NCBI GenBank assembly: GCA_000165345.1 | Contig: CM000436.1 | Coordinates: 1,280,713-1,344,712, forward strand | Direction: 5' to 3' | DNA length: 64,000 bases | Made by a program: the position numbers and the translations under genes | Shown here: piece by piece, positions 39,969-42,358 of the stretch | Layout of the letters: every line of letters starts with the position of its first letter | Numbering within the stretch: the stretch's first letter is position 1 | Notes under the pieces: model-generated | Seen by the model: the letters and a program-made list of their open reading frames with translations, nothing else | What the model was told of the DNA's origin: nothing | Databases searched by the model: none

Positions 39969-42358
39969 TCAAATGTATTGCTCAATATCAAAAATAGAAG
40001 GTCTGAGAAGAGGATCGACCTTTAATAAAGATAGTAATAAGACTTTTACTTCTTTAGGGATTTTTTTATCAATTATTACATTCTTATTGACTAGAGTAGG
40101 GGGTACTCCAACTAACAAACAATGTAAAAGTACTCCCAAGTTCCAAACATCACATTTTCTCAAGTCAACCTCTGAATTTAAACTGTTAAACATCCTGCTA
40201 AATAACTCAGGTGGTGAAAGCCATTTATTCCCTAAAAATATGTTTTGAAAACTTTTGGCTAATTTAATAAACATACCTGAAAAAAGAATATCTTTATGAT
40301 TCGTAGCCATACCTTTAAATGGAGAACTCATCTTCACCATAAGTTTTCCTTTTTCAGATCTAATATTATTCTGTATAAGTTCTGTATTATAGAAATTTCT
40401 AAGGTCTTCAACAAAAGGTATTGGATTAAATAAAAATGAATCATTTTGAATATCAGCAGGTAAAGATTTTTTTTCTTGAATAATATGTTTAATATGGCTA
40501 ATAGCAGCAGAATCAAATTCATTTGAAATATTTACTGATTTGGCTGGCTTCCAGTATTCGAAAAGTTCCGGATCAACTTCAATTTTGGATTTATTTTTCA
40601 CAGAATTCTCGAGCTTATTGTTGCTTTTTGTAGAACTAACCAATAATAATTGAGTCAGCTTTTTTCCGTTCTTATCAATATATGTTTCACCCAAAGAATG
40701 TGATAATTTAATCGACTCGGGAGTAAAGTAAATTCCTGATACACCTTTCGAGTGAAGGTATTTTACTCCCTCCAGAACTTGTGAAAAAATAAGCTTTGAG
40801 CCGTGATATGTATACACTTTATTAACATCTTCCATATTTGAGTTAATTGTAGGTGCCTGATAAGATTGGGTCTTAGAGTTCCATTTCATACAAGAATGAG
40901 GTAAATATTCCATGACAAATATAGAAAATGGGTATGATTGATCTTGGATGACTTCATTGATACGAACAAAGTTTTTATGGCACATTAAAAGTGATTGGGA
41001 AAACATTTCTCGAGATATTGATTCATGAGATATTGGATTTCCATATAATCTTCCAAAGATTGAAGAAAGAAAAGAATCTTTTTTCACAAAGAGAAGTTCA
41101 TATAAGGCTGGAAACTCTGTGGCTGATTGCTTAGTTTTATTATAAAAGTCTCTAAACTGCCAAATGTACTCTGCTACTTGTAATTTACTCGCAGAAGGGT
41201 ATGGGTTATAAAGTTCTCTTGAGTGACTAACTAGGCGAAAGTCATTAATACATTTATGAGGTTTCCAGACTATTGATCCGTTATGAACTTCATTCCAAAG
41301 AATTGCTCTAGAAATTTGAATTATGTTTTTACCTGAAGAGATAAGTTAAGAAATTTAATATATTTAGAAATATAAAAATTAGAAAATTAATGATTTCTTA
41401 CTATACCTGCAATCTTGTTATTCCAATAGTAATAATTCAAGAGATTTCCTCCCCATCCAACATGCATTGAGGTTACTGGGCTTTGAATATACTCTTCTTC
41501 TCCATCTAAAACAGTTGCAATGCTTTCAGTCTTAATGTCAAATTTGCAAACTTTGTTATCCCTATTTAATTGATTTGCTGTGTGATGTATGACCTTTTCC
41601 TTACAATTTTTCTTCAATATTGGACCTACTTTTTTGCTAATAGATTTGATGGGTGACTTCTTGGATTTGCTAGGGCTGATGCTTTTGTTAGAGGCACTTC
41701 TGACAGCTCGTATCGGCGTCTTTTTTTGCTCTTTTTCAGAGTCCATAGCTTTCTTGGTATTACTTAATGTTCTGGTCTTAATTTTAGGGCTTTTTGGCAA
41801 CCCAGTTCTTGGATGAAGAGGATATAGTATTGCCTCGTCAAATGCCCAGTCTTTCCTAGGAGAAGGAGATCTCTTGAATGTTGCTCTTGTAGAAACTCCT
41901 CTAAGGCATCTTGTTGGATGAAGGTGATGAGTTGGTGAACCAGAATGGTGATTATACTTTTTCAAAGCAGGAGATTGTGAAGCTATTGGCTTAGCAGAAC
42001 AACTGTTCATCTTTACATTTTTTTTCGATTTGGGATTTGATAAAAATGGGTTAGATGATCTAGCTCTCACTTTTGTAACAGGAGATCCAATTCTTGGATG
42101 TGGAGGATAGAGTATTGCTTCATCAAATGGCCAATCTTTCCTGGGAGAAGGAGATCTCTTGAATGTTGCTCTTGTAGAAACTCCTCTAAGGCATCTTGTT
42201 GGGTGAGGGCTTCCACTATGATGCTTAATTTCAGAATTAACCCGTGTTTTTGACCTTCCTCTTGAAACTTGCAGCTTCTTTTTATTTGTGCCTGTAGATT
42301 TGACCTTTGTTGGGTTCTTAGGAGAAAGTTTCACGCTTTTTCTTGCAACTACAGCCAT
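39969..42358 (-). CDS. Pseudokinase-like protein with basic SP-rich duplicated N-terminal region: exon 1 42358-41407, intron 41406-41333 (74 nt), exon 2 41332-39969
   Basis: The downstream ORF (39969-41087) carries kinase subdomains (VMEY..., WLSPPELF, DVWNLGVLL, LLRPS) but has degenerate HRD/DFG motifs. It stays open upstream to 41345 with no ATG. The upstream ORF (ATG 42358) ends 40 nt before it. A GTATAG donor at 41406 and a CTTATCTCTTCAG acceptor at 41335-41333 join the two in frame. The donor is non-consensus, so the junction is tentative. Confidence 0.45.
41800..42230 (-). repeat. Internal duplication (two copies of about 150 nt, 240 nt apart) encoding PTRCLRGVSTRATFKRSPSPRKDW[PA]FDEAILYP[PL]HPR
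   Basis: Near-identical DNA at about 41805-41945 and about 42085-42225. Each copy has an S-P-x-K/R (CDK-type) site and an R-x-T-F motif. Confidence 0.55.

Follow-up and report, generated by a model that had tools for sequence, protein, structure and literature searches.

A predicted pseudokinase with a basic tail and a duplicated module encoded by the sexual-stage gene cgd8_5330 of Cryptosporidium parvum

Pseudokinases such as STRAD-alpha and Tribbles combine a kinase fold and retained structural residues with degraded catalytic motifs, and carry short docking motifs in disordered flanks. A similar arrangement is found in the product of cgd8_5330 (CPATCC_004413), a gene on the minus strand of C. 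parvum chromosome 8 that has absorbed the former cgd8_5320. It lies in the 64,000-nucleotide (nt) stretch of DNA analyzed here (GCA_000165345.1, contig CM000436.1, positions 1,280,713 to 1,344,712), called the window below, to which all coordinates refer. To our knowledge, STRAD-alpha and Tribbles share no sequence relationship with the cgd8_5330 protein beyond membership of the kinase superfamily and contain no counterpart of its N-terminal module, and we know of no partner kinase or ligase on record for it. A further likeness is to [ST]-P-x-[KR] sites and to SPKK-type sperm histone tails, since the tail of the cgd8_5330 protein has an invariant S-P-[RC]-[KR] in highly basic surroundings; it is a likeness of pattern only, and the conserved hydrophobic and acidic residues of the module (DWPFDEAILYP) are foreign to SPKK tails. 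Based on our analysis, cgd8_5330 is probably one three-exon gene whose product joins a sexual-stage pseudokinase to a basic tail with two conserved modules, and we infer that this product acts as a phospho-regulated scaffold.

The nearest relatives of the kinase-like domain are active-looking apicomplexan kinases named “atypical MEK-related kinase”, a name that the 2011 kinome paper gives to the T. gondii orthologue of cgd6_4960 (OPK-2 group, cgd6_4960 / TGME49_043340). In an exhaustive profile search of 1.84 billion representatives, the Cryptosporidium orthologues of cgd8_5330 scored at least 469 bits, and members of the OPK-2 clade and everything else scored 72 bits or less. The only sequence between these levels was P0024, a 106-residue fragment (93 bits) from an ENA metagenome contig of 1,871 nt, as is the case for the ryanae-like fragment P0023; P0024 is probably also an orthologue. 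The first non-orthologous matches were paralogues from C. canis and C. ryanae and proteins of the gregarine Polyplicarium, Theileria equi, Cardiosporidium and Besnoitia, with E-values from 6.5e-15 to 3e-11. The OPK-2 clade and cgd8_5330 have in common an N-terminal LW motif, C(I/L)N.Y, (M/H)EY.P..M.WN....Y, a long insert at the same position between the catalytic loop and the DFG motif with (L)W.DAP inside it, VK(L/M)S before the DFG position, TPPE/SPPE and (K/R)xD.W(S/N)LG. The clade keeps H(R/K)D.KP.N, DF(G/N) and a GxGxY loop, whereas cgd8_5330 has G-I-Y..P.S, S-P-F-K-G and no glycine loop, and the N-terminal module occurs in none of the clade proteins. Cryptosporidium species also contain a separate member of this clade (P0025, P0027), P0025 being the presumed orthologue of cgd6_4960. 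Given this separate member and the drop from 469 to 72 bits, cgd8_5330 was rejected as an orthologous member of the clade and is a paralogue at best. Sequence comparison thus presents the gene as a paralogue that degenerated from an active-looking clade of apicomplexan kinases and whose pseudokinase state was fixed before the genus diversified. In the C. ryanae assembly GCA_009792415.2, two copies of the gene (L006 and P0008, 67% identical to each other) are present on different contigs, reflecting either a lineage-specific duplication or an assembly of mixed species.

Residues 318-756 match the Pfam Pkinase profile (PF00069) with an E-value of 1.7e-10 and 41.2 bits against a cut-off of 31.7. 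A profile built from nine orthologues retrieved 341 kinase matches from the PDB, of which CAMK/CAMKL/CaMKK structures were the best (E-values of 9e-11 to 1e-7). These structures (SNRK, MARK1-4, AMPK, CaMKII, MAPKAPK2, CpCDPK1, CaMKK1 and CIPK23), which were also the top fold matches with template modelling scores of up to 0.72 on the target, are only 11-15% identical to cgd8_5330; they are active kinases with complete catalytic motifs and without the 115-residue insert. An AlphaFold2 (AF2) model of the domain from a deeper alignment was bilobal, with a predicted local distance difference test score (pLDDT) of 73, a predicted template modelling score of 0.77 and low confidence in the 115-residue insert. 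Foldseek matched the model to kinases over both lobes, across about 420 columns, with a probability of 1.00. Profile match and bilobal fold together place the domain in the kinase superfamily. The full-length AF2 prediction with 9 orthologues was unusable (mean pLDDT 33.5) and is uninformative on disorder of the N-terminal region.

The catalytic residues of this domain have been replaced. In an alignment with CpCDPK1, YLHSKGVSGIYFTPESIKL falls on YMHKHNIVHRDLKPENILL, so that H is changed to G, R to I, the catalytic D to Y, K to T and N to S, and no HRDxKxxN motif is left; in an alignment with 39 diverse kinases, the G, I, Y and S replacements were invariant in 11 of 11 orthologues. The DFG Asp is also missing, its position being occupied by P or I. 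MAFFT placed the DFG position at N-F-Y inside the insert, where C. parvum likewise has no Asp; we preferred SSPFKG because the closest relatives have VKLSDF(N/G) at this point, MVK forms a strand in the AF2 model, and the distance to the APE-like Glu is 22 residues instead of 48. The GxGxxG glycine loop is absent, and all orthologues have gaps or S-H-S-R-E-L-Y-N-P-Y in its columns. Structural residues have been preserved, namely the alpha-C Glu (E426, invariant), P-P-E in place of APE, the subdomain IX Asp in D-x-W-x-x-G and the subdomain XI Arg. The column of the VAIK Lys is occupied by K401 (K84 of the domain) in one alignment and by E389 (Glu72 of the domain) in another; in the AF2 model, K401 lies at the end of the strand formed by residues 77-84 of the domain. 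Because the losses of catalytic residues are fixed in all 11 orthologues, we regard the domain as a conserved pseudokinase that is predicted to be incapable of canonical phosphotransfer. A sequence-only reading made earlier had called the domain probably dead on account of GIYFTPESIKL in place of the catalytic loop and the lack of a DFG motif and glycine loop next to retained SPPELF and DVWNLGVLL; all of these features were found as described, and the kinase-domain profile that it recommended scored above its cut-off.

The N-terminal region (residues 1-317) looks disordered, has a net charge of +49, is composed of 14% Lys, 13% Ser and 9% Pro, and includes 14 S/T-P sites, five of which are full [ST]Px[KR] sites. 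This agrees with the K/R/S/P-rich N-terminus with SPxK/R sites noted in the sequence-only reading. No Pfam domain was detected in the N-terminal half, and a search of PDB sequences with this half and the module profile returned no relative, only a His-tag artefact. In full-length searches the region was found only in Cryptosporidium. It contains two copies of a module, encoded by two 123-nt DNA copies that are 91% identical, lie 285 nt (95 codons) apart and are far beyond chance expectation. The duplication had been recognized before as two near-identical copies of 55 residues; the repeat holds, at a shorter length, with a near-identical core of 41 residues, 35 of which form an invariant-like core. 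This 35-residue core is genus-specific, and each named species has two copies of it, in line with the conservation that the earlier reading had suggested looking for in related species. The module cores are the most conserved part of the protein, with 77% and 91% identity between C. parvum and C. muris, compared with 44-47% for the kinase lobes and 14-22% for the linkers. Their invariant positions are PT.CLRG.STR.T.KRSPSP..D..FDE..LYP, and the CDK-type site SPSP[R/C][K/R] is invariant, with S-P-[RC]-[KR] found in all 15 module copies read from DNA as well as in both P0008 copies; the CDK-type [ST]-P-x-[KR] pattern, present in every copy examined, is a sequence-pattern match only. A search of a collection of 5.8 billion proteins with the module profile gave 6 candidates sharing words, none of which scored, and since the orthologues were missed too, the result is uninformative beyond the rarity of the words.

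The two copies within a species resemble each other at third codon positions more than copies from different species do, with identities of 0.94 in C. meleagridis, 0.92 in C. ryanae, 0.81 in C. parvum and 0.72 in C. felis, against about 0.5 between species; C. ubiquitum and C. canis do not show this signal. Because synonymous sites of the copies are more alike within than between species, recurrent intragenic gene conversion is indicated as the process that would homogenize them. In an orthologue from a GC-rich relative (L007; Logan SRR31860986, positions 1-2500; 55% GC against 32% in the window), which has the same two introns, a single module copy is present. This could be a real loss by unequal crossover or a collapse in short-read assembly.

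Both halves of the gene are transcribed at the time when sexual stages appear. The reverse-transcription PCR (RT-PCR) primers designed for cgd8_5320 and cgd8_5330 match the window uniquely, at 40209-40230 in the kinase open reading frame (ORF) and at 41919-41940 in the upstream ORF. Of the 3,302 genes assayed, 107 had more than 80% of their expression over 72 h concentrated at a single time point; both amplicons belong to this group and peak at 48 h, with 85% and 87% of the 72-h signal (Mauzy 2012, PMC3305300). In RNA-seq data from sorted cells (Tandel 2019), log2 counts per million in asexual stages, a 48-h in vitro “female” sort and in vivo females were 3.43, 12.08 and 3.49 for cgd8_5330; 1.37, 5.15 and 2.33 for the male HAP2; 7.27, 11.27 and 8.62 for the male CDPK5; and 5.2, 16.1 and 15.7 for the female COWP1. 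The row of cgd8_5320 parallels that of cgd8_5330, and COWP8 is high in vivo like COWP1 (Tandel 2019). According to these published data, the gene is thus near-silent in asexual stages, and its transcript is about 400-fold more abundant at 48 h, the time at which gamonts appear. The direction of change, in vitro only, is that of the validated male proteins HAP2 and CDPK5 and not that of the female wall proteins COWP1 and COWP8. Since 16% of cultured females carried an attached male gamete (Tandel 2019), a male origin of the cgd8_5330 signal is plausible.

The gene structure confirms what has been public since 2015 and is not a discovery. A re-annotation that required support from RNA-seq or cDNA already listed cgd8_5320 as an exon of the flanking gene (Isaza et al. 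2015, Table S1). The identifiers cgd8_5320, cgd8_5330 and CPATCC_004413 and the associated accessions are not mentioned in the main texts of the literature searched, the 2011 C. parvum kinome paper does not include the gene, and neither the pseudokinase status nor the module is described in that literature. The upstream ORF (42358..41387, minus strand, 323 residues) is identical to the Iowa II “hypothetical protein” XP_627411.1, and the downstream ORF (39969..41087, minus strand), read from its first ATG, to the 345-residue “Ser/Thr protein kinase” XP_627410.1. The sequence-only reading had placed both ORFs correctly and had proposed that they are parts of one gene joined across a 74-nt intron at 41407/41332 in spite of its atypical GTATAG donor; this junction, conserved across species, is exactly that of the current annotations. 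Splicing 41407 to 41332 removes 74 nt and yields a single open frame of 771 codons. The 45-nt second intron had been missed in that reading, which made its protein 15 residues too long. With both introns removed, the product is 756 residues long and matches QOY40301.1 of C. parvum IOWA-ATCC residue for residue; no signal peptide was found in it. Two other statements required correction. The downstream frame does not stay open up to the upstream stop (41389..41387), as had been claimed, but opens at 41345, 38 nt past it and within the intron, and continues to the stop at 39969. It also does not strictly lack a start codon of its own, because an in-frame ATG at residue 427 was used by the 2004 annotation; this ATG is not the real start, since 109 conserved residues would be lost. 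Exon 1 encodes the basic K/S/P/R-rich region with both modules, followed by a conserved TESIATVLDGEEEYIQSPVT..HVGWGG block, and its product equals XP_627411.1 without the 6-residue read-through tail of the latter. The features are listed in Table 1.

Table 1. Exons, introns and protein features of cgd8_5330 in the 64,000-nt window
Feature	Position	Strand	Details
Exon 1, 952 nt	41407..42358	-	ATG at 42358; residues 1-317 and first base of Gly318
Module copy 1, residues 52-86	42101..42205	-	HPTRCLRGVSTRATFKRSPSPRKDWPFDEAILYPP; DNA repeat unit 42087-42209
Module copy 2, residues 147-181	41816..41920	-	HPTRCLRGVSTRATFKRSPSPRKDWAFDEAILYPL; DNA repeat unit 41802-41924
Intron 1, 74 nt, phase 1	41333..41406	-	cag/GTATAG...CTCTTCAG/gt, TTCAG end; 16% GC against 32% in the window
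Exon 2	40277..41332	-	N-lobe-like region, alpha-C helix, degenerate catalytic loop, insert of ~115 residues, degenerate DFG
Degenerate catalytic loop S-G-I-Y-F-T-P-E-S, residues 516-524	40713..40739	-	Aligned to V-H-R-D-L-K-P-E-N of CpCDPK1
Degenerate DFG S-S-P-F-K-G, residues 653-658	40311..40328	-	After beta-8-like MVKM; paralogues have VKLSDF(N/G) here
Intron 2, 45 nt, phase 1	40232..40276	-	cag/GTATGT...ATTTTTAG/gg, TTTTTAG end; 20% GC; in frame and stop-free; in the activation segment
Exon 3	39969..40231	-	NKWLSPPE (APE-like), DVWNLG (subdomain IX), subdomain XI Arg; stop 39971-39969

Intron 1 was compared across the orthologous loci of C. meleagridis, C. ubiquitum, C. canis, C. felis, C. 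ryanae, C. muris and L007. It interrupts the same codon in the same phase (phase 1, after cag) in seven species and in L007, its lengths are 74, 72, 73, 72, 69, 141 and 77 nt (range 69-141), and an in-frame stop occurs within 6-7 codons in every species compared; the old upstream gene model also takes its stop codon from this intron. Because position and phase are fixed, length is variable and stops are in frame, the segment is an intron and not coding sequence or an intergenic spacer. Both introns have the features of spliceosomal introns, with GT-AG ends, low GC, conserved position and phase and free length, and neither preserves the frame, apart from intron 2 in the C. parvum clade, C. ubiquitum and L007. 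An alternative donor, GTAAGA, 5 nt downstream in intron 1 was rejected, as no acceptor restores the frame with it. A bacterial promoter and terminator scan of the intron region was set aside as irrelevant to a eukaryote. As a separate observation, two elements at the start of intron 1, its first 14 nt (GTATAGTAAGAAAT) and a YTAAT at +17..21, show conservation that extends from C. parvum to C. felis and C. ryanae and, in part, to L007; the conserved start corresponds to window positions 41386-41406 on the minus strand (the first 21 nt), whereas intron 2 diverges right after +6. The read-through peptide of intron 1 is G-I-V-R-N-x-stop in most species. The conserved start could be a splicing-control element or could define the end of an intron-retained, tail-only isoform.

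Readings of the locus other than a single gene with two introns have been put forward in annotations. That it holds two independent genes, as in 2004, with a 323-residue hypothetical protein and a 345-residue kinase starting at the internal ATG, is hardly credible to us: the original Iowa II models exist and the levels of the two RT-PCR amplicons are about 4-fold apart, but the 38 nt from the upstream stop to the opening of the downstream frame contrast with a mean intergenic length of about 550-590 nt in C. parvum, the 109 residues before the internal ATG show strong conservation (an identity of 0.73 across species) and make up the N-lobe strands of the model, the two halves share the rare 48-h spike (2 of the 107 such genes), and all newer annotations have merged them. 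A better case can be made for a one-intron main product of 771 residues, in which the 45-nt segment would be coding, adding MFIKLAKSFQNIFLG to the activation loop, or would be retained in a substantial fraction of transcripts. In C. parvum and C. meleagridis the segment contains no stop and keeps the frame, and several deposited models of C. hominis and C. tyzzeri are 771 residues long. We nevertheless consider this product unlikely. The segment has canonical intron ends and 20% GC; its open, in-frame form is confined to the C. parvum clade (45 nt), C. ubiquitum (48 nt) and L007 (51 nt), whereas its homologue is 47 nt long, frame-shifting and interrupted by stops in C. canis and C. felis and measures 228 nt, again with stops, in C. 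ryanae; C. muris lacks it. Comparison of C. parvum, C. hominis, C. tyzzeri and C. meleagridis shows five substitutions in the segment, all of which would be non-synonymous if it were coding, compared with 42% of differing codons in the exons. Evidence-based models of C. parvum IOWA-ATCC and C. hominis UdeA01 remove the segment, and without it the DFG-like Phe and the APE-like Glu are spaced 22 residues apart. The two-intron model of 756 residues is therefore the best supported by these comparisons.

The biochemical nature of the two halves can also be read differently. An active kinase with non-canonical catalysis, comparable to the WNK, CASK and haspin-type exceptions, would be in keeping with the name Ser/Thr protein kinase in databases, with the conserved Lys-Lys (K401/K402) at the end of the predicted beta-3 strand and with the invariant alpha-C Glu. 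It is nonetheless very unlikely in our view, as the domain would have to do without the HRD and DFG Asp residues, the catalytic Asn and the entire glycine loop at once, and the replacements (Y, S and P/I), fixed across the genus, cannot coordinate Mg-ATP or serve as a base. For the tail, the R-A-T-F sequence of the module had been read as a PP1-docking-like motif, and the protein could on this ground be a phosphatase-targeting subunit with two RVxF-type sites. The motif adjoins basic residues and phosphorylatable serines, an arrangement that recalls phospho-regulated RVxF motifs. It fails the RVxF pattern [RK]x(0,1)[VIL][^P][FW], however, having Ala at the V/I/L position; the Phe is replaced by Tyr in the basal species, in the four C. 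muris and C. ryanae L006 copies (R(A/S)TY) and in both P0008 copies, the second of which reads RPAY; and the invariant residues of the module are found elsewhere, in CLRG, KRSPSP and FDE..LYP. A PP1-targeting role is accordingly given very little credence here.

Under the preferred interpretation of a single gene for a pseudokinase with a modular tail, the dead kinase domain would act as a binding or allosteric scaffold or platform, and we infer that it does so in sexual development. Each module places a proline-directed site beside the hydrophobic-acidic patch DWPFDEAILYP, and the two identical modules may be bivalent docking sites that are switched by proline-directed (CDK-type) phosphorylation in sexual development, most likely in males. 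A dimeric or two-site partner would explain why two identical copies are kept by gene conversion. A bolder and rather doubtful extension of this proposal is that the module is a new CDK-switched short linear motif with an SPSP[R/C][K/R] core, and the dead kinase a bivalent adaptor that controls nuclear division or chromatin compaction in male gametogenesis as a Cryptosporidium-specific sexual-stage regulator; an association with chromatin is conceivable because the tail, with its charge of +49, contains SPKK-like sites.

Several points weigh against this interpretation as a whole. The protein has no partner, phosphosite or localization on record. The AF2 model of the domain came from an alignment made of kinases, so its fold is biased towards them and is supportive rather than independent evidence. 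The beta-3 lysine is perhaps kept, and the domain may bind nucleotide or use an unusual catalytic mechanism. A minor isoform retaining intron 2 may exist, as reading through this intron meets no stop and keeps the frame in C. ubiquitum, L007 and the C. parvum clade, and the support for splicing consists of comparative evidence and published evidence-based annotations. The distinction between male and early-female expression is drawn from contamination-like behavior in a bulk-sorted sample, and an early-female transcript that is lost after fertilization may be the alternative source of the signal.

Some further observations concern the records of the gene and its surroundings. In the supplements of PMC3305300 and PMC6877471, cgd8_5320 is labeled “COWP6”, “Uncharacterized Secreted Protein” and “Pseudouridine synthase I TruA”, which clash with its sequence; these labels look like shifted rows or stale annotation, and users of the tables could be misled. 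The genes on either side, at 36048-39173 and 42944-46360 (both on the plus strand), encode 1,041 and 1,138 residues with signal-peptide-like N-termini and no Pfam match. Synteny around the gene appears to be conserved, since the orthologue lies between large genes of comparable size in every species examined. Housekeeping genes in the window include one for an SRP receptor alpha-like GTPase (21067-22713, plus strand; SRP54 domain, E-value 4e-56) and one for an amino-acid permease (23067-24569, plus strand).

Cryptosporidium needs sex for the production of oocysts and for sustained infection, and few regulators of the sexual step are known. The gene cgd8_5330 is genus-restricted and among the most sharply induced sexual-stage transcripts, and databases call its product an ordinary Ser/Thr kinase although canonical phosphotransfer is predicted to be impossible. 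Recognition of the protein as a pseudokinase corrects kinome counts and drug-target lists. In addition, the conserved duplicated module is a concrete handle for the pull-down of partners, and the gene is a candidate for genetic tests of gamete development, offering a reasonable, if not surprising, lead into the sexual development of Cryptosporidium.

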